IMG/VR virus record: IMGVR_UViG_3300030708_001195
Coordinates: 1 to 28,773 of that record
From: a virus
Taxonomy: Duplodnaviria; Caudoviricetes
DNA length: 28,773 bases
Strand: one strand, 5' to 3'
The position numbers and the translations under genes are program-made. A model generated the notes under the pieces. That model had not been told where the DNA came from. It was given only the letters and a program-made list of their open reading frames with translations, and ran no database searches. Of the stretch, positions 5,392 through 21,674 are shown piece by piece. Position 1 is the first letter of the stretch; each line of letters begins with the position of its first letter.

Positions 5392-5613
5392 ATGAGTAAA
5401 TGGAAAATATGGAAACGGATTACTGAGGGACCGCCACGTCGCCTACCGATGGCACGCTTGTGTCAATGCGGTGGTATCAAGACACGGCAGACCACATTAC
5501 ACGAGTTCTTTGACTTGACATCAGACCGTCAGGCACGACTACCGGGCTATAAGCCTCCACAACAACGTGTGGGTATGCACAGCAGACCGAGAGATTACAG
5601 GGGGTCATTGTGA
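5392..5613 (+). CDS. Small basic protein with a canonical PIP box (QTTLHEFF)
   Basis: GGTGA RBS before ATG 5392. QTTLHEFF (5488-5511) matches Qxx[LIM]xx[FY][FY]. The stop overlaps the start of the clamp gene. Confidence 0.65.
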   Translation: MSKWKIWKRITEGPPRRLPMARLCQCGGIKTRQTTLHEFFDLTSDRQARLPGYKPPQQRVGMHSRPRDYRGSL

Positions 5614-6386
5614 TGGTTGAGGTCAACATCAAGACCAAGCAAGCACAAAGATTCCTTTCATCATTCGGAAGCAACGTGGATGACTTGAAGGTTACAATCA
5701 AGGATGGTGTTATGGAAGCAAGCATTGCTTTCCAAACCCACTTCTTCAAGAAGAAGCGAGCGATAGAGGACTTCACTGCTCTCAATCCCTCGCAGACAAA
5801 AGCAGACGGTGTGTTGAACATTAGTGAACTCACTAAGGTATGTCAGTTCATCAAGAGTTGTAAGACAGATACAATCAAACTCAAGCAAACTGGGTCGGGT
5901 AAGACGCTCTATGTTATCTCCGGCTCATCGAAGTTACAACTTCCTGTGAGTGCAACAATCATCAGTAGCAGTAAATCTCATCTCGTTGAGAAATTACTTA
6001 CTGCATCTGCTGAGGCGCAGTGGGAATCATTCAACAACAGTGAACTCACAACGAGTGGCTCTGTTACTATCTCTGATGTGCTATCTGTTACGAAGATGAA
6101 AGGTATACTGTCCGCTAATCCATCGTTCAAGGTCACTGGTAATGCTGGTGAGAAGGAGTTCGCTATCTCTGCTGGTAAGACACACGAGGCGCGACTGTTC
6201 ACCACCACTGAACTGGTTGACCCTATCGGTCCTAATGCAAGTGTGCAGTCACACTTCGGCCCGTGGCTTATGGAGTCACTGGGCTTACTGACAGGTGCGA
6301 CTGCCACTGTTCACATGGGTGAGACATCACCTATCATTTTCCGACAGAACGACGACCTTCTCTTAGTGGTAGACCAAAGGGTGTGA
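5610..6386 (+). CDS. pcn: PCNA-like DNA sliding clamp
   Basis: About 257 aa with two alpha/beta repeat halves and a PCNA-like C-terminus (FGPWLMESL...ATVHMGETSPIIFRQ..LLLVV). It lies directly upstream of PolB and near RFC. The sequence is divergent, so the call rests on pattern plus context. Confidence 0.65.
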   Translation: MMVEVNIKTKQAQRFLSSFGSNVDDLKVTIKDGVMEASIAFQTHFFKKKRAIEDFTALNPSQTKADGVLNISELTKVCQFIKSCKTDTIKLKQTGSGKTLYVISGSSKLQLPVSATIISSSKSHLVEKLLTASAEAQWESFNNSELTTSGSVTISDVLSVTKMKGILSANPSFKVTGNAGEKEFAISAGKTHEARLFTTTELVDPIGPNASVQSHFGPWLMESLGLLTGATATVHMGETSPIIFRQNDDLLLVVDQRV

Positions 6387-6390
6387 TTAC

Positions 6391-8757
6391 GTGATTGTGG
6401 ACTGGTTCTACCCTGAGTATTCAGATGACTTCGGGTCGCCGTCTCTGTATCTACGCACACGTGATGCTAATGGTGATGTGCATACTCGTATCATAGAGCC
6501 TGAGGATGATGATTACATTCGTCCCTTCTGCTGGATTCCTGTAGACACTGCCAACTGGCAACTCAATCGACTGACTTCTCGCCACCCATCTGCGCGTGTG
6601 CTTGAGAGTGTTCGGTCGGTTGGTATTGATGGAAGAGAACTGATGAAGTTAGAGGTAGACAAGCCCAATGAACTGTGGGAAATCAAGGAGATGATGCCCA
6701 CATACGAGGCTGACCTCAACTACAAAGAGCAGATTCTACTCCAACTATATCCTGAGAAGATACCTGAGTTCCATCCTCGTGTATGGTTCTTCGACCTTGA
6801 GTGGCAACCTAAGGAGGACTTCACGACAGTCATGGCTGTAGTGGATAGCCACGCCGAGCATCCTATTGTATTTGCATGGAAGCCTGAGATACATACGATG
6901 CAAGTCAACTGGATTGACCGCGAAGGTGGGTATCTACTGCACGAGTTCGGTAGTGAGGAAGCGATGCATGAAGCATTCATTCAACACATGGATGTATGCG
7001 ACCCTGACATCCTCGTCGCTCACGCTATCATGTGGGCTGACCTACCTCACCTAATGCGACGACTGGAAGACCCGCATCGTTTGTCTCCTCTGAATCAAGT
7101 CATTAAGCCGTTCAAGGACGGTGGATACAAAGAGACACAGCAACCCATCAAGGGTCGCCTTTGCTGGGACTCATCGTCTCGTTGGCAGACGGGTAGTGGG
7201 TTTGAGACACTATGGCAGAAGTCAGGGCGTGGGCAACTACCCAACCGGAAGTTGAATACTATCGCTGGTCTGATGGGTCTTGGCTCTAAGTTGACTGATG
7301 AGATTGAAGGTATGACTGTCCATAATGGATGGGAGGATTACTATCCCTTCTTCGTGGATTACTGTCTACGAGATACAACTTTGTTATCTGATATCGCTGA
7401 GCGACTAAACGCGATTGAGTTCTTCGTTGCTATGCAACAACTGTGTGGTGTATCATGGGAGAGCACACACAAGGTTACACGATACTTCCGTGGACTTGTT
7501 GGTCGTCGCACTGAGATGAAGGCGAAGAGTGCAAGCAATGTGAAGCGCGACAAGTTGGTCGCTGCACACATCCCTGACCCAAAGACAGGTCGGCATGAGG
7601 GTGTTGGTTTGTTCGACTACGCCTCTCTATATCCTAACATTATCACAAGTGATAATCTCTGCTTTACTACTAAGCGCTCAGCCCCCGGCCCCGGTATCAA
7701 GACACTGGGTAATGGGACACACTGGGACCAAACCGAGAAGGGTTTGCTTCCCTCTATCGTAGATGAGATGCTTGAACTTAGAAAGGAATACAAGCAGAAG
7801 ATGAGAAACGCTGAGACATCGGAGGAGCGCCTCGGTTACGATATGCTACAGACAGCAGCAAAGGTTGCAGTCAACGCTCTCTATGGTATGTGTGGTATGA
7901 AGTCCGTCCAAGGTATGTGGGTGGAGAACGACATTGCCGCATCTATCACCTTCCGTGGGCGAGAGGCTATTCGTCACTTGCTTACAGAGAGCGAAGAGCA
8001 AGGTTATCACTCGCTATATGGTCATACTGACTCAGCCTTCATTCAAGTTCCGTTCGATGAAGCAGAAGCATTGGCCGAGCATCTCACTAAGACCGCTAAG
8101 GAGATGTTAGACCTTCCTTACATGGATGTTGAACTTGAGGCTTACTTTGATTATTGGACCACTGCTCCTGTGAAGAATCGTTACTTCGGTTACAAGGTGT
8201 GGCCTGAGAGCGACAAGGGGCAACTCAAAGTTACAGGCTATGCTATGAAAGCATCAAGCACAGCGAAGATAACAAAGGAAATACAAGAAACTGCTATGCG
8301 CCTTATCGGACATGGTGCTGAGGAAGAAGAAGTATCATCTGCTCTAAGAGAACTGGCTCTCAAGGTTAAGAGTGGCGAGATACCAATCAACGATGTAGTT
8401 CTCTCTACAAGGCTCACTAAGGAGCCTGATGCTTACGACTCACCCACACCCGGAGCAAAGGCAGCGATGTATTACAATGAGCACCTCGACGGTGAGAAGT
8501 GGCGTCAAGGCGACAGCGTCACATGGACATACATCTCTGACGCGGGTGCTTTACCTGATTACGTTACGATTAACGGTGAGCGTCAACGTGTGCAATTCAT
8601 GGCTTTCCGAGATATTGACGAACTAGGCGGAGCAATTATTGACTGGGAGAAGATTCTCGATGTGCTTGTGAAGTCCAAACTCAAGCGTCTCTACGAGAGC
8701 GTAGGTTGGGACATAGCAACAGCAGCGGGCGACGTGGTGCCACGGGTGTATTGGTGA
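6391..8757 (+). CDS. polB: Family B DNA polymerase with 3'-5' exonuclease domain
   Basis: ExoI FFDLEW, ExoIII YCLRDT, motif A DYASLYPNII, motif B KVAVNALYG, motif C variant YGHTDS, and KNRYFG. No intein is evident. Confidence 0.96.
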   Translation: MIVDWFYPEYSDDFGSPSLYLRTRDANGDVHTRIIEPEDDDYIRPFCWIPVDTANWQLNRLTSRHPSARVLESVRSVGIDGRELMKLEVDKPNELWEIKEMMPTYEADLNYKEQILLQLYPEKIPEFHPRVWFFDLEWQPKEDFTTVMAVVDSHAEHPIVFAWKPEIHTMQVNWIDREGGYLLHEFGSEEAMHEAFIQHMDVCDPDILVAHAIMWADLPHLMRRLEDPHRLSPLNQVIKPFKDGGYKETQQPIKGRLCWDSSSRWQTGSGFETLWQKSGRGQLPNRKLNTIAGLMGLGSKLTDEIEGMTVHNGWEDYYPFFVDYCLRDTTLLSDIAERLNAIEFFVAMQQLCGVSWESTHKVTRYFRGLVGRRTEMKAKSASNVKRDKLVAAHIPDPKTGRHEGVGLFDYASLYPNIITSDNLCFTTKRSAPGPGIKTLGNGTHWDQTEKGLLPSIVDEMLELRKEYKQKMRNAETSEERLGYDMLQTAAKVAVNALYGMCGMKSVQGMWVENDIAASITFRGREAIRHLLTESEEQGYHSLYGHTDSAFIQVPFDEAEALAEHLTKTAKEMLDLPYMDVELEAYFDYWTTAPVKNRYFGYKVWPESDKGQLKVTGYAMKASSTAKITKEIQETAMRLIGHGAEEEEVSSALRELALKVKSGEIPINDVVLSTRLTKEPDAYDSPTPGAKAAMYYNEHLDGEKWRQGDSVTWTYISDAGALPDYVTINGERQRVQFMAFRDIDELGGAIIDWEKILDVLVKSKLKRLYESVGWDIATAAGDVVPRVYW

Positions 8758-9288: not shown

Positions 9289-10277
9289 GATGGAATCCTA
9301 ATCCTGACGGTGGAAACATCGACCGTGGTGACGCAGAGTATCCTTACAAAGAGATGCTTGAGCACCACAAGAAGAGCACTTACGCTTGGCAACCCGGTGA
9401 TACAGACAAAGTCCTTCGTGTGACTAAATCAGCACTTGGAACCTTTGACTGGTGCCCTCAGCAATACTTCTTACAGAAGGTGCTTAAGTTACCACAAGGC
9501 CCTGCGACAGAGGACCAGATTCGTGGTTCTAATGTCCATGATGCAGTAGAGTATTGGTGGAACGCGATGCACGATGTAGTGCATGATGTATACGAGTTGT
9601 TTGAGAGCGGTGATGTAGAGAAAGCACTGTCTTTGTGCATAGACACTTTACCGCAGCCACCTGAACCATACATCTACGGAGAAGTAGAACAACTTCACTT
9701 GTATGTGCTATGGCAGTTCCAACGACTTTGTAACACAGACAAGGACGACATACACAACTGGTTCCCAATCGGTAACGAAGCATTGGTTCATGGTGTCCGC
9801 ACTGTCACTGCTTCTGATGGAACAGAAGTAGAGATTCACATGAACGGTTTCATTGACCGTATCTTTCTTGACGACGACAAGATGGGGATTGTATTGATGG
9901 AATTGAAGACAGGTAAGTTCTCTAAGAACAAGCCATCACAGATGCGAGCCGAGATGCAATTCTACCGAATGCTTCTTGAGCATAGCCCCCATGAAGAGTT
10001 CCTACCCGTAGTGGCTTGGGGATGGCAATTCCCCGGTGGTGATAGAAATGGAGGAACAGGACCAGAATGGGATTACGAAAGTGTCAGTGGACCCGGAGGA
10101 CGTTACGCACCGCGCACAGTGGAGAAGCGTCTCAAGCGGTTGGTGGATGCTCACTTGGCCCAAGATTTCCCACCAATTAAGGTTGACAACTGGAACGATT
10201 GGAAGTGCTCATACTGCGACTACATGGAGTTCTGCCCAGCATGGGGAGGAGAGGTGAAGATAGATGAAGAAGAATGA
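9285..10277 (+). CDS. Stand-alone Cas4-like / RecB-family PD-(D/E)XK exonuclease with Fe-S cysteines
   Basis: N-terminal WCPQQY, GSNVH, GFIDRI, ELKTGK, MQFY and C-terminal CSYCDYMEFC give the 1+3 cysteine arrangement of Cas4/AddB nucleases. Confidence 0.85.
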   Translation: MRWNPNPDGGNIDRGDAEYPYKEMLEHHKKSTYAWQPGDTDKVLRVTKSALGTFDWCPQQYFLQKVLKLPQGPATEDQIRGSNVHDAVEYWWNAMHDVVHDVYELFESGDVEKALSLCIDTLPQPPEPYIYGEVEQLHLYVLWQFQRLCNTDKDDIHNWFPIGNEALVHGVRTVTASDGTEVEIHMNGFIDRIFLDDDKMGIVLMELKTGKFSKNKPSQMRAEMQFYRMLLEHSPHEEFLPVVAWGWQFPGGDRNGGTGPEWDYESVSGPGGRYAPRTVEKRLKRLVDAHLAQDFPPIKVDNWNDWKCSYCDYMEFCPAWGGEVKIDEEE

Positions 10278-10545
10278 CATTCATTATGCAAAGGCACTTA
10301 TTAAAGCGGCACTGGAAGAAATGTTTCCTGATGCCTCGTTTGAGGTCGCAGTGTCTCTTATCGAAGGGGACTCACACGTGCGCTCATTCAAACAAACTAC
10401 TCTTGGTGACTTTGCTAAGATTGGATTAGAGCCGACCGAAGAACCCAGCAGACATTTCTTCGTAACACTACATCCTCAATCACTTCTTTCATACAAAGCA
10501 AAGGGGCTTTTGAAATCGTTAAAGGATGACATAAACAAGTATTGA
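10264..10545 (+). CDS. Hypothetical protein with a PIP-box-like motif (KQTTLGDF)
   Basis: GGTGA RBS, overlap with the upstream gene, and QTTLGDFA at 10393-10416. Confidence 0.6.
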   Translation: MKKNDIHYAKALIKAALEEMFPDASFEVAVSLIEGDSHVRSFKQTTLGDFAKIGLEPTEEPSRHFFVTLHPQSLLSYKAKGLLKSLKDDINKY

Positions 10546-18376: not shown

Positions 18377-19803
18377 CAGTCATCACCTCTTATCATAACA
18401 CCAGTGCTCTTACTACCACCGACTGTCTCTTGGCTACTGGTTGCTCCGATGGTGCCTCTATTCATGGCCTTTCCTATGATAAAGCCGGTGCCGGAAGCAC
18501 CATGGTGCGTGATAGTAACTAACGGAGTGACCTTAATCTTGATGTCACCAAACAGTGATAGATTCTTCTCACTGATTTGTTCTACAATGTTAGGCTCAGA
18601 ACCAGTGTTCACAGCACCCTCTGCAATGCCTTGTAATACACCTTCGATACCAGTATCTACAGTTAAGAATACAAGGTCTGTAGCATCCTTTGCAAGATTG
18701 TGTCTAACTTCAGTTAGTATGCGCCTTACGCCTTCATACTCTATGATTTGACCCGGTCGTAAATCCCATGATTGTGGGTGACCGCTACTGCTTTTGTTTC
18801 CTGCAAGTAGATTGTTTGCTTTCAAAATATTACGCGCCACTCTTCGTGCTGACTCATTTGTTTTCACAGTCATGTCTGTAATCACTTGCGCCTCTTGTTG
18901 TGTATCAGGCGCCCTACCACTCTGCCTTTCAGCATCGCTAACCTCTGCGAAAGCGGACTCATTGAGTGATAGCGATATACCTTGAACTGCGATTGTGCTT
19001 GGAGCGTTCTCTACTGGATTGGTCTGCGAAGGCCCGACTCTTGAATTAGCATCAACAAATCTACCTGCCTCGCTAAAGTTGAATGGGACATATAGGATGT
19101 TACCAAATCGGTCGAAGTAAATGATATGATTATCATGACGACCAATAAAACGGAGAGCGGAAATTAGATTAGCGCTATTGAAATCAACAGCAGTAAACGT
19201 GGTGCTATGTTTTCTGCGGTCTGCTACTGAGCGAGTGGGGGACATAGGAAGAGCGATGTTCACAGATGTGAATGAATCAGCAACGTCCCTACCTAATCGT
19301 AGTGCCATGTCCGTAGTGCGGAAACCCACGTCAATGGGATATCCAATGTGAACAAGATTACTGTTGAAACCTATCTCTTGGAGTGTTCTTCCCTTGAGGT
19401 TTCGCACCGATAAAGTCGCACCCTGACTTCCAGTCAAGACGCTTCCTAACGATATGCGCTCAGTGTTCGTATCTATAGAATATAGCAGCGGCGGCTTATA
19501 TAAAGCGGCATCATTTTCCACAAATGACCCCATATAAACCAACGAAGATAGATGTTCATGCCCAGCGACTTGTCGATGAGTCAAACGCACTCCATCTTCT
19601 AACTCATTTACCTCGTATGCGCGTTCTGTGCCGATAGGATAATTAGCCTTCTTGCGCTGACGTAGCGTCACCTTTTGCTTGGAACTACCTTGTAGTGATA
19701 CCTCACCAAGATGTAGGGCGTTATCTACAAACTTGGGCTTACGCACGTGTTTCATGACGACATCACTGTCGCCAGTCAAGCGTTGCTGTGCGAGGTAAGG
19801 CAT
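18376..19803 (-). CDS. Putative tail-tip/baseplate hub-like protein
   Basis: IYFDRFGNILY and ARRVARNILK...WDLRPGQIIEY...ILTEVRH resemble phage hub/tail-tip proteins. Likely start is ATG 19803 (TGATG overlap). Confidence 0.55.
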   Translation of the reverse strand: MPYLAQQRLTGDSDVVMKHVRKPKFVDNALHLGEVSLQGSSKQKVTLRQRKKANYPIGTERAYEVNELEDGVRLTHRQVAGHEHLSSLVYMGSFVENDAALYKPPLLYSIDTNTERISLGSVLTGSQGATLSVRNLKGRTLQEIGFNSNLVHIGYPIDVGFRTTDMALRLGRDVADSFTSVNIALPMSPTRSVADRRKHSTTFTAVDFNSANLISALRFIGRHDNHIIYFDRFGNILYVPFNFSEAGRFVDANSRVGPSQTNPVENAPSTIAVQGISLSLNESAFAEVSDAERQSGRAPDTQQEAQVITDMTVKTNESARRVARNILKANNLLAGNKSSSGHPQSWDLRPGQIIEYEGVRRILTEVRHNLAKDATDLVFLTVDTGIEGVLQGIAEGAVNTGSEPNIVEQISEKNLSLFGDIKIKVTPLVTITHHGASGTGFIIGKAMNRGTIGATSSQETVGGSKSTGVMIRGDD

Positions 19804-21206
19804 CACATTCCCTCCTTAATTTGAGTCAAGAACTTAGGGTCAACATCGTCCATAAACCGATAGTCATCAGGGAATAACCGTTTTGTGTCCTCGCCAGTAT
19901 CATCACCATAACCTATGTATTCTTCGGGCATTCCTGCGCCTTCCCTAACACCAATTAATGCTGGGGCCGGAATTGGTCTATACGACCAGCCTTTTCTTTC
20001 TGCATACCTATGCGCACGCTCAGGTTTTGTGGTAACAAACGCACCTCTGTAAGTTGGGTCATAATTTTCCATAAACTTATCATAAGAACCATCCTCCATG
20101 GCTTGAACATATTCTTCTATGTTTTTGTATGGGTTTCTATTAGCCCTTAATCCCTGCCTCATAATTTGTTGAACATTTGTTTCAGGAGTCCCATGATAAT
20201 ACTTCACTGGTCCATAGGAAGAAGGTAAGTCGGGATGAAACTCACCAAGTTCTGTTTGGCGTTTGAGCAACGCAATGTTAGCACGTGGGATTGCACTGGG
20301 TCGGACATTCGACATGGTGCCACCGAGCACACCGAATGGCTCTTGGTGTTGTATAGGAGAAGGGAGGCCACCGGCTCTCACGCCCACAACTCCAACCTGA
20401 GAAGAAGGTAGACCAAGTGACTGCGCACGCTCTTGAGCAAACGCAAGTGCTCTCTCTCGGTCAGGTGTAGTGTATGTGATATCTTGCCCACGTAGTTGCT
20501 CAGGCACATACTTCTTGGAACGCTTACGACTGGACCGTGCTTTGATGCCCTGCTCGCTCACAGCAGGTAGATTCATCGTGCCGTGATACTCGGTCACAGG
20601 GCCGAGGGATGAAGGGAAGTCCTCGTGGAACTCACCAAGTTCTGTTTGGCGTTCTGCTTTAGTAAATCCTGTTTCTTCACTAAACGGTATATTTTGGAAA
20701 GTAGGCATTGGTGTAGTTTCAACATAACTAAGTTGCCCTGACTCATCAAATACAGGTTTAGTATCTTCCAACACGTGTTTTGATGATGCAACCAATTCTT
20801 CTTTTGTCCCATCAGGTCTTGTGACTATTTTTCTATCAGGGAACATATTTTCATCAGCATGACTAGGATGAATCGCAGGGTGATATAATCTAGCATCAGG
20901 ATTTAATTGAGCACGTCCCTCGCCCGTTTTAGGATTGTAATGTATTAGAGGCCCCTCCCCTCTATCAAGATACATTCTATCATAGAAATCTTGGTCATCA
21001 AAATAATCAGTATCATGACCCAAAAAGTGTGCTATAGATTCACCCGGATGAGTTTCACGCTTTAGCAACCGCCAAGCGAGGTCCATTGGACTCTTCTTTA
21101 CCTTTTCAGGTAGATTCTTCTTCTTGGTCTTCTTCTCAAACCGCTTTGCCATCTTTGGGTCAGTCGCATACATAAAGCGACGTTGAGCCTGAGATTCAAA
21201 CGGCAT
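19803..21206 (-). CDS. Modular protein: basic leader, PMDLAWRLLK motif, unknown domain, and two tandem ADP-ribosyltransferase-like domains each preceded by RQTELGEFH
   Basis: Domain A reads YHGTMNLPAVSEQGI...ITYTTPDRERALAFA...VVGVR...AIPRANI. Domain B reads YHGTPETNVQQIMRQGL...AFVTTKPERAHRYA...LIGVR...VDPKFL. Both show the HGT / (Y,F)xT / (Y,F)A pattern of HYE-clade and Tpt1/KptA-like ART folds. Confidence 0.7.
   Translation of the reverse strand: MPFESQAQRRFMYATDPKMAKRFEKKTKKKNLPEKVKKSPMDLAWRLLKRETHPGESIAHFLGHDTDYFDDQDFYDRMYLDRGEGPLIHYNPKTGEGRAQLNPDARLYHPAIHPSHADENMFPDRKIVTRPDGTKEELVASSKHVLEDTKPVFDESGQLSYVETTPMPTFQNIPFSEETGFTKAERQTELGEFHEDFPSSLGPVTEYHGTMNLPAVSEQGIKARSSRKRSKKYVPEQLRGQDITYTTPDRERALAFAQERAQSLGLPSSQVGVVGVRAGGLPSPIQHQEPFGVLGGTMSNVRPSAIPRANIALLKRQTELGEFHPDLPSSYGPVKYYHGTPETNVQQIMRQGLRANRNPYKNIEEYVQAMEDGSYDKFMENYDPTYRGAFVTTKPERAHRYAERKGWSYRPIPAPALIGVREGAGMPEEYIGYGDDTGEDTKRLFPDDYRFMDDVDPKFLTQIKEGM
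20239..20653. repeat. Exact 25-bp direct repeat pair AACTCACCAAGTTCTGTTTGGCGTT (20239-20263 and 20629-20653)
   Basis: Read directly from the sequence. The copies are 390 bp (130 codons) apart and encode RQTELGEF on the minus strand. Confidence 0.95.
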
Positions 21207-21261
21207 TACTCATCGCTCCATTTCTTTGCATCTTTAGCAACCGCCAAGCGAGGTTCATTGG
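21060..21261. repeat. 30-bp direct repeat pair CTTTAGCAACCGCCAAGCGAGGT(C/T)CATTGG (21060-21089 and 21232-21261)
   Basis: 29/30 identical. It encodes PM(D/N)LAWRLLK in two different ORFs. Confidence 0.95.
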
Positions 21262-21674
21262 TTCGCTTGCATTTTTCACATAAGAACCACCTACGCTTAT
21301 TTTTTGTGGCTCAAAGGATTCAAAATCTTCTGCGAATGTATAAGCATCTTTCCATCCGGGAGTAAGAGGATTAGTTCTATGTGGTTTCAAACGCCAAGCA
21401 TTCGCTCCGGCGGCGACACTTTGCCATGGAGTCACTTCGAGTGAATCTCTCCGATTTCGATTTTCCCTCCGCTCTTCCTCCCGTTGCTGTAAAAATTCTC
21501 TATGCTGAGCGTTCAACTGTTCCCTTTGCTTTTCCCTTGGCCTTTCCCTTGCCCATTCCTCTTGAGCAAGCATTTTACGGCCCTCAGCGATACCGCTTAA
21601 ATACGCTTGACTTTTTGGTATTTTTTCCACGCCCACCTTTTCAAACGGCATTACTCATCACCCCATTTCTTTGC
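21195..21674. repeat. 35-bp direct repeat pair TTCAAACGGCATTACTCATC(G/A)C(T/C)CCATTTCTTTGC (21195-21229 and 21640-21674)
   Basis: 33/35 identical. On the minus strand it carries an RBS plus TAATG plus MPFE, the translation start of both the 151-aa and the 467-aa ORF. Confidence 0.95.
21196..21651 (-). CDS. Hypothetical protein with a charged coiled coil and a C-terminal EPMNLAWRLLK motif
   Basis: 151 aa, starting MPFE like the downstream gene, with an E/R/Q-rich helix. It is bounded by the 35-bp repeats. Confidence 0.65.
   Translation of the reverse strand: MPFEKVGVEKIPKSQAYLSGIAEGRKMLAQEEWARERPREKQREQLNAQHREFLQQREEERRENRNRRDSLEVTPWQSVAAGANAWRLKPHRTNPLTPGWKDAYTFAEDFESFEPQKISVGGSYVKNASEPMNLAWRLLKMQRNGAMSNAV

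Follow-up and report, generated by a model that had tools for sequence, protein, structure and literature searches.

Tandem ADP-ribosyltransferase-like cassettes with PCNA-interacting-peptide-like heads in a modular protein of an apparent group A magrovirus

A modular gene with two ART-like cassettes

The window, as the whole analysed stretch of 28,773 nucleotides (nt) from the virus record IMGVR_UViG_3300030708_001195 (Caudoviricetes) is called here, belongs to what looks like a group A magrovirus with likely hosts among the Marine Group II archaea. Its minus strand contains an open reading frame (ORF, 21206-19803) for a protein of 467 amino acids (aa), in which the peptide RQTELGEFH occurs twice, at aa 186 (nt 20651) and aa 316 (nt 20261). 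This peptide resembles a PCNA-interacting peptide (PIP) and opens a segment termed head in the following. Each head is succeeded by motifs like those of ADP-ribosyltransferases (ARTs), namely, HGT at aa 208 and 338, QG[IL] at aa 219 and 351, Y245-T-T and F390-V-T, F256-A and Y401-A, and GVR at aa 275 and 419. The repeat and all of these motifs had been named in the original prediction and were found in the translation. The ORF is composed as follows:

19803..21206, minus strand: 467-aa cassette polyprotein (basic N-cassette, tag, cassette M, PIP-ART1, PIP-ART2), from the translation and homologs; its stop and start codons overlap those of the neighbours
21093..21206, minus strand: basic N-terminal cassette, aa 1-38, with no assigned role; N1-50 recurs on many other cassette strings
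21060..21092, minus strand: lysine-ended tag SPMDLAWRLLK, aa 39-49; the same tag precedes many unrelated modules
20652..21059, minus strand: cassette M, aa 50-185, acidic, swappable, ending in a short Lys junction; recurs in homologs
20601..20651, minus strand: head 1, aa 186-202, PIP-like Q187-L190-F193 with a conserved HxDxPSSxG extension; residues 185-200 form the modelled PCNA interface
20271..20600, minus strand: ART1 core, aa 203-312, with H208, Y245, stacking F256 and a basic loop (aa 222-244), from an AlphaFold2 (AF2) model and the alignment
20262..20270, minus strand: LLK junction between the ART cassettes, aa 313-315, from the translation and homologs
20211..20261, minus strand: head 2, aa 316-332, PIP-like Q317-L320-F323 with extension, from the translation, head alignment and model
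19806..20210, minus strand: ART2 core, aa 333-467, with H338, F390 and stacking Y401, from an AF2 model and the alignment

The original prediction had not described that the ORF is made of a string of cassettes and that aa 39-49 form a complete lysine-ended tag. Comparison with 76 homologs, which have pieces in common with it and never the whole, establishes at the level of sequence that its cassettes are swapped between viruses at lysine-ended junctions. With 85-100% identity, the N-cassette, M, ART1 and ART2 reappear in varied orders, alongside HD-hydrolase, GNAT and nucleotidyltransferase modules, and relatives combine several unrelated conflict domains in one chain, as polyvalent proteins do. 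One homolog (P0003) is without exactly ART1 and another (P0004) without M, while ART2 is a separate gene in L002 and L003. As a stand-alone gene in other viruses, ART2 encodes 162-165 aa; ART cassettes as stand-alone proteins measure 122-195 aa. Islands of similar DNA coincide with module boundaries: ART1 stands out as an island of 97.6% in L085 and of 94% in L084, the downstream genes of the latter being only 73% alike. No family match was obtained for cassette M (about 134 aa) in Pfam or PHROGs. Its end motif PTFQxIPFxEETGFT also terminates other cassettes.

ART1 and ART2 are related to each other. Aligned as modules, they scored 151 versus 29 ± 5 in 1000 shuffles; without the shared head, the score was 50 versus 26 ± 4 and was reached by one of 1000 shuffles. 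A profile-profile comparison with the heads included gave a probability of 99.7 (E 1.5e-26). The same tandem is present in four other proteins (P0002, P0004, P0006 and P0007). An assembly artefact was ruled out, as a 1472-nt contig of run X2 spans 19622-21093; this run is an independent assembly but may be the source sample. At head 2 (20211-20217), runs X2, X3 and X5 differ from the window at four linked positions, which results in Tyr versus His and matches P0002.

The 166 stretches from a metagenome scan included 114 relatives, none was encoded in 30 candidate stretches of GTDB genomes, and no RNA holder was listed. Other magroviruses (L081, L104 and L109) contain arrays of seven to eleven adjacent tagged genes, in which HD, GNAT-like and kinase-like modules were recognised by eye; L109 has three ART-like genes, one of them PIP-headed. 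The slot next to the 467-aa gene is variable as well:

21196..21651, minus strand: gene for 151 aa that shares the variable slot and carries the tag close to its C-terminus, from the translation and a 39-nt repeat

The repeat consists of the 5' flank and start of the 467-aa gene, which recur at this upstream gene over 39 nt with 92% identity. Only ten residues follow the near-C-terminal tag, and the gene looks like a cassette string that was broken or rearranged at a junction.

Fold and active site of the ART cassettes

Judging by the models, both domains almost certainly have an ART fold, as originally predicted. AF2 reached a mean predicted local distance difference test score (pLDDT) of 90.0 for ART1 (29 sequences) and 74.7 for ART2 (22 sequences). 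Foldseek ranked Thermococcus KptA first for both cassettes (E 1.8e-3 for ART1 and 7.6e-3 for ART2). In wider structural searches the best match was again the lobe of KptA that binds nicotinamide adenine dinucleotide (NAD), with Z 8.4, a root-mean-square deviation (rmsd) of 2.5 and 80 aligned residues for ART1, and Z 10.5, rmsd 2.4 and 84 aligned residues for ART2. Nearly all listed rows of these searches were ARTs; among those behind KptA was the Rhs toxin TreX (Z 7.0 for ART1 and 8.3 for ART2), and human PARP10 matched ART2 with Z only 4.1. The ART2 profile was also compared with the PDB sequences, where all 32 matches up to E 10 were Tpt1, H-clade exotoxins or PARPs (best E 0.008). Its alignment places H338 and F390 at the first two triad positions and Y401 at the stacking Tyr; the ART1 equivalents H208, Y245 and F256 were placed by equal spacing, so that their register is inferred.

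These residues are well conserved (H208 29/29, Y245 29/29, H338 22/22, Y401 21/22). At the second triad position, all 29 ART1 sequences have Tyr and the 22 ART2 sequences have F (15), Y (5), H (1) or S (1). On strand 5, which was located from the DSSP assignment of the models and not by residue-level superposition, ART1 has no acid in columns 299-302 (S/T, N/H/R, V, R/H) of 29 rows, and ART2 has D/E in 9/22 at column 448 and in 12/22 at column 447. As strand 5 thus has no conserved acid, the cassettes are best described as His-clade ARTs and not as H-Y-E enzymes, and the proposed membership in the HYE clade is not supported. The proposed likeness to Tpt1 (KptA/Tpt1, PF01885) holds for the NAD lobe: the YHGT...GL motif aligns and neither side has a catalytic Glu. 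It ends there, because only residues 92-180 of KptA are aligned, the RNA lobe is absent from the cassettes, and strand 2 has Tyr/Phe where Tpt1 has the second His of its H-H-h triad. The cassettes are not ART-PolyVal enzymes either, since the Asp of the H-Y-D triad of PF18760 and Tox-ART-HYD2 is not conserved and the PF18760 cut-off was not reached.

Sequence families gave little. PF01885 stayed below its cut-off (E 0.34), and PF18760 did not match the window cassettes at all; in relatives it reached E 0.003 and 0.074 (18.8 and 14.2 bits versus a cut-off of 31.2). In PHROGs, ART1 had no match and ART2 weakly matched one unknown family. Among annotated phage genomes there was no match for ART2, a 476-aa gene or a 115-aa gene, and P0089 had four weak matches, one of which is annotated 'ADP-ribosylation' at E 0.9. 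The two cassettes may differ in target, as the ART1 loop at aa 222-244 is basic (8 K/R, 2 D/E) and the ART2 insert is near-neutral (5 K/R, 7 D/E). In L120-L143, L007, L025 and L034, many head-bearing cores have TMRRFHP, TAISSQP or RGYRA in place of YHGT; head-bearing cores without the strand-1 His may be inactive.

According to another reading, the cassettes are mainly PCNA sponges or anti-defence NAD binders. The head would fill the pocket of the clamp like the Thermococcales protein TIP, and the ART would be an NADase, a binder of nucleotide signals or a decayed carrier. Such a role would suit the non-conserved catalytic acid, the many head-bearing cores without strand-1 His, the PIP-only peptides of the same viruses described below, and the example of TIP, a small archaeal protein that inhibits PCNA and for which an N-terminal PIP has been proposed (passages of PMC4929162). 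However, both window families keep the His, the Thr and the aromatics of strand 2 and of the stacking position with few or no exceptions, and ARTs without Glu can be active. Passages of PMC9825190 describe Glu-less TreTu as an active mono-transferase that modifies an Asp, and according to PMC6182162 some archaeal Tpt1 enzymes ADP-ribosylate 5'-phosphates of DNA and RNA. The sponge reading is considered unlikely.

The head as a PIP box

The PIP consensus is given in passages of PMC4929162 as QXXhXXaa, that is, Q-x-x-[LIM]-x-x-aromatic-aromatic. By chance, 22% of the shuffles of the 467-aa protein hold one PIP-like 7-mer and 2.5% hold two. Q, L, G and E do not vary among the 51 dereplicated heads, which is partly circular because the loci were fetched with the motif; the seventh PIP position is F in 37, Y in seven and H in seven. 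All six Leu and all six Arg codons are used across these heads, and such scrambling points to selection on the peptide. The possibility that the head is kept only as a recombination handle was rejected as sole cause for the same reason.

The head was also considered as a structural strand of the ART, which is disfavoured by three findings. The top KptA alignments of both cassettes start at model residue 18 and leave the head outside the fold; residues 1-7 of the free ART2 model have a pLDDT <50; and three of 22 HG-type clusters begin directly with MP(V)YHGT, in a set of 195 tagged-module clusters that is biased toward heads through the way it was fetched. A Q-x-x-L-x-x-Y head moreover leads an unrelated DUF3293/SAM-lyase-like cassette, and other heads retain only Q, L and the aromatic residue (QMKLYNY, QTNLNQF, QSTLWGY). 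Four lines of evidence from sequences and models point to the head as an optional, portable and detachable clamp ligand. The DUF3293 domains with tag and PIP-like head lie at L068:10480-10827 and L081:14811-15350 (E 4e-6; SAM lyase E 0.005) and are possibly clamp-tethered S-adenosylmethionine (SAM) sinks against methyltransferases.

A search for the host with the thermosome yielded two genomes, both non-Poseidoniales, and the PCNA of Thermoplasma was therefore used as a stand-in. Thermoplasma presumably belongs to the same phylum as the host. A 9.6-kb contig (L149) in a Parvibaculum metagenome-assembled genome carries a thermosome with 51% identity to that of the virus and is probably a misbinned magrovirus piece. 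Modelled with Thermoplasma PCNA (PCNA_THEAC), the whole ART1 cassette scored 0.90, while the best of three controls scored 0.01. Among pairs used for comparison, 116 of 157 solved ones and 2 of 215 mismatched ones attained this mark, which is roughly applicable here, where an own alignment was used. Contacts agreed to at least 94% between the runs, with a partner pLDDT of at least 83. The interface comprises residues 1-16 of ART1 only (aa 185-200) and, on the PCNA side, 39-46, 116-123, 218-219, 239-246 and few others, which we take to be the PIP pocket and the connector loop. As the modelled interface spans the extension, it would explain why conservation covers 17 residues rather than 8.

Taken from these models, binding of PCNA by the head is very probable. 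The PIP box of the original prediction is supported by the Thermoplasma model, the optional and portable head and the low model confidence of residues 1-7 of ART2; it departs from the consensus in its last position, a His. This His and the length of the conserved stretch, 17 residues instead of a PIP, could also indicate that the head is no clamp ligand but part of a packaging or cleavage signal or a site for another conserved partner, and that the ARTs, like Alt and TreTu, work away from the fork, in translation or transcription. In the fold searches, TreX ranks second or third; it is related to TreTu, which modifies EF-Tu. The duplicated head is also a crossover site, as P0003 lacks exactly ART1. 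Nevertheless, 45 of 55 tagged modules are headless, which does not suit a general packaging signal; the modelled PCNA interface takes in 16 residues including the extension; differing heads keep only Q, L and the aromatic residue; and the scrambled codons speak against DNA homology as the reason for conservation. A head with a function away from the clamp is regarded as very unlikely.

Lysine-ended tag and junctions

What separates the modules is either a full tag of the MDLAWRLLK type or a short Lys junction. A set of 91 proteins, many of them near-duplicates, contains 87 heads. A full tag precedes 52 of these, a short Lys junction 22 and the start Met 11, and two have neither before them. 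As 85 of the 87 thus come after a Lys junction or Met, the head lies at or near a real or potential N-terminus.

In a scan with the tag only, half of the collection yielded 121 loci with 127 matches; removal of modules <20 aa left 55 non-redundant modules, including about five that look like chance matches in other phages and stayed in the count. A PIP-like motif was located at the start of 10 of the 55 modules versus 1 of 269 control positions. Seven of these ten are HG-type and three are Arg-type strand-1 variants, and all seven HG-type modules in the scan begin with a PIP-like motif. Since nine of the ten belong to one head lineage, the scan indicates enrichment and not ten origins.

The tag may be a capsid-loading and cleavage signal. 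The architecture of cassettes and tag points to late expression and virion delivery, and the proposal of packaging via the tag draws on the analogy with the capsid-targeting sequence of T4 and with Alt. Delivery of the ART cassettes within the virion is, on this analogy, slightly favoured.

Virus, gene arms and the viral clamp

The genes of the plus arm agree with a group A magrovirus. Family searches identified an RFC-like AAA protein, PolB, a thermosome and PD-(D/E)XK and ERCC4 nucleases, and the primase had a weak family match; together with the clamp, these form an archaeal-type replisome (PolB, RFC, primase, clamp) with a thermosome. Passages of PMC5434244 state that all magroviruses encode a clamp, that the thermosome occurs in group A and that group A magroviruses infect Marine Group II archaea. 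No capsid gene was identified in the window. The 467-aa gene sits on the arm opposite to the replication genes. For a relative, the ICTV profile places the clusters for replication and for morphogenesis on opposite strands and mentions a maturation protease in the morphogenetic cluster and little need for host replication factors (PMC10768690). The neighbours of the 467-aa gene had no convincing family match in Pfam, PHROGs or annotated phage genomes; the gene may lie in a structural operon. The features of the plus arm that concern the clamp are:

5610..6386, plus strand: likely viral sliding clamp, strongly diverged from cellular PCNA, from language-model features
6391..8757, plus strand: viral PolB, ending in P-x-x-Y-W and without C-terminal PIP, from family search and tail comparison
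5392..5613, plus strand: 73-aa ORF with QTTLHEFF (nt 5488) and QARLPGY directly before the clamp gene, from motif and comparison of clamp loci
10264..10545, plus strand: 93-aa ORF with QTTLGDF (QTTLGDFA, nt 10393); its homolog in L006 keeps QMTLGDY

In a language model, the 5610-6386 protein had features of 0.92-0.93 to clusters of gp45-type clamps. It had no Pfam PCNA match, no profile match to one archaeal PCNA (a weak test with a single PCNA) and no useful match among the PDB sequences. As sequence searches gave no match, its identity as a clamp rests on the language-model features, the gene position and the literature. The viral PolB ends in P-x-x-Y-[WF] and is without C-terminal PIP in all 11 contigs compared (12 clamp loci); this tail was seen in the window (6391-8757), L147, L151-L161, L018 and L108. 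It is possibly a private binding motif for the diverged viral clamp.

The motifs QTTLHEFF and QTTLGDFA, to which the heads had been likened, are present in the window, but in the small ORFs of 73 and 93 aa and not in replication enzymes. Small ORFs with PIPs of canonical appearance adjoin the clamp or PolB in six of the 11 contigs (RQSTLDEFF, RQTTLDEF, KQSSLTDF). Some contain one or two PIP-like motifs and little else, namely, 5392-5613 of the window, L151:2801-3001, L156:2756-3001 and L147:7148-7279, the last with 44 aa and two motifs. These are candidate viral PCNA decoys like TIP, which is cellular, has no enzyme domain and is closer to such PIP-only ORFs than to the ART cassettes. A family of ORFs of about 95-110 aa, located before the primase, has retained Q-T-T-L-x-[DE]-F as an internal motif (window 10264-10545, L006, L055, L112, L130).

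Two codes are the simplest and a probable explanation, in which canonical PIPs would address the host clamp and another motif the viral one. The divergence of the viral clamp and the lack of a C-terminal PIP in the viral PolB make host PCNA the more probable binding partner of the heads. If the PIP-ARTs instead rode the viral clamp, they would modify the viral genome or replisome, for example as a shield against nucleases or as a packaging mark. In favour of this, the clamp is encoded by the virus (passages of PMC5434244) with PIP-bearing small ORFs right beside it, and untagged, Met-started versions of the cassettes exist. A His at position 44 is nearly invariant in the viral clamp family. 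This position presumably lies at the pocket in PCNA. Against it stand the canonical PIP missing from the C-terminus of PolB in 11/11 contigs, a clamp too diverged for a Pfam PCNA match, the location of the ART genes on the opposite, presumably late arm, and the hypervariable cores exchanged among distant viruses, which suggest conflict more than housekeeping. Use of the viral clamp would remain a minority explanation.

Discussion

The favoured interpretation is an active ART that acts on the host clamp, to which we assign a probability of roughly one half on the basis of sequences, models and analogy. Late in infection, the polyprotein would be loaded into the head of the virion by its tag and cut after Lys, so that RQ would come to stand at the new N-terminus or close to it. 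Each ART so freed would, in the next cell, dock on host PCNA via its N-terminal PIP-like head and mono-ADP-ribosylate a nearby oxyanion at the replication fork. An oxyanion is proposed as acceptor because phosphates or carboxylates are the substrates of Glu-less ARTs such as Tpt1 and TreTu. Somewhat preferred as acceptors are Asp/Glu side chains on PCNA or on the proteins that partner it; 5'-phosphates at Okazaki nicks come second as a less likely choice, and plain NAD hydrolysis instead of transfer seems improbable. Replication of the host chromosome would be arrested early in infection, and viral forks would be spared by their diverged clamp and a PolB without C-terminal PIP.

A more specific version is tentative. 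It assumes a two-part address on virion cargo, in which the Lys-ended tag loads and frees the cassettes and the PIP head sends diversified ARTs to host PCNA, where Okazaki 5'-phosphates would be capped or partners of the clamp modified; the viral clamp would read P-x-x-Y-W instead, which would spare the viral replisome. If true, this would be a clamp-addressed, fork-specific attack without need for an immunity protein.

Several observations weigh against an active ART on the host clamp. Both Foldseek E-values lie above the 1e-3 line, no Pfam ART family reached its cut-off (best for the window E 0.013) and even the best relative stayed below it (E 9e-5); some heads are attached to cores without the strand-1 His (GPVTMRRFHP, GPMTAISSQP). 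The eighth PIP position is not aromatic but His in 48 of 51 heads and, with the seventh being His in 7/51, the affinity of the head may be low. The complex model covers ART1 only, with a stand-in for the PCNA of the host, and speaks for fit and accessibility and for likeness to many solved PIP-PCNA complexes. Several viral PolBs contain an unexplained internal Q-x-x-L-x-x-Y match. Concerning delivery, the 467-aa ORF has a single full tag (aa 39-49) and both of its heads follow short junctions, and virion loading is apparently not needed by all heads, as 11 of 87 stand at the start Met with no preceding tag. Nine of the ten PIP-headed tagged modules form one head lineage and are not independent, and a structural role of the neighbouring genes can only be proposed, since they lack a convincing family match.

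Parts of the proposed system are known from elsewhere. Passages of PMC5512222 describe polyvalent phage proteins as multi-domain strings with ART, GNAT, HD and nucleotidyltransferase domains and repeated ARTs, in late-gene context and with predicted virion delivery; the cassettes found here are small and have Lys-ended tags, and the text of PMC5512222 mentions neither 'PCNA' nor 'clamp'. T4 Alt is an ART that is packaged in the head and injected, and T4 internal proteins are diverse cargo with only a targeting sequence in common (passages of PMC5512222 and PMC3012670). Alt differs in belonging to the R-S-E clade and in modifying RNA polymerase, and packaging is proven in T4 and inferred for the magrovirus cassettes. 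Alt is not known to have a clamp address. Human PARP10 (ARTD10) is a PCNA-binding mono-ART with a PIP box (passages of PMC8053099), but as a large cellular repair protein of other architecture it is alike in logic only. The Rhs toxins TreX and TreTu are minimal single-domain ARTs, and TreTu has an unorthodox, Glu-less triad (passages of PMC9825190). They are delivered by type VI secretion with an immunity protein, and TreTu targets EF-Tu; no immunity gene is apparent in the window.

No report of clamp-addressed ART cassettes was found in the literature, although supplementary annotation tables outside that search could list ARTs. The same applies to PMC11706807, PMC5434244 and PMC10160649, whose texts do not contain 'ADP' and whose supplementary tables could still list ARTs. 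A survey of viral NAD systems (PMC9503650) has neither 'PCNA' nor 'sliding clamp' in its text, and passages of PMC8651126 report ARTs annotated in two haloviruses with no clamp link there. Virion-borne ARTs are thus known from bacteriophages and a PIP-bearing ART from humans; an ART of an archaeal virus that is aimed at the sliding clamp was not found in the literature, nor was an account of how magroviruses stop their host. Their hosts are among the most abundant uncultured marine archaea, and PIP-headed modules are common, with 10 of the 55 tagged modules sampled and dozens of different cores. The cassettes would offer a small and cheap test of host shut-off, of archaeal ADP-ribosylation and of the reason for the diverged viral clamp.

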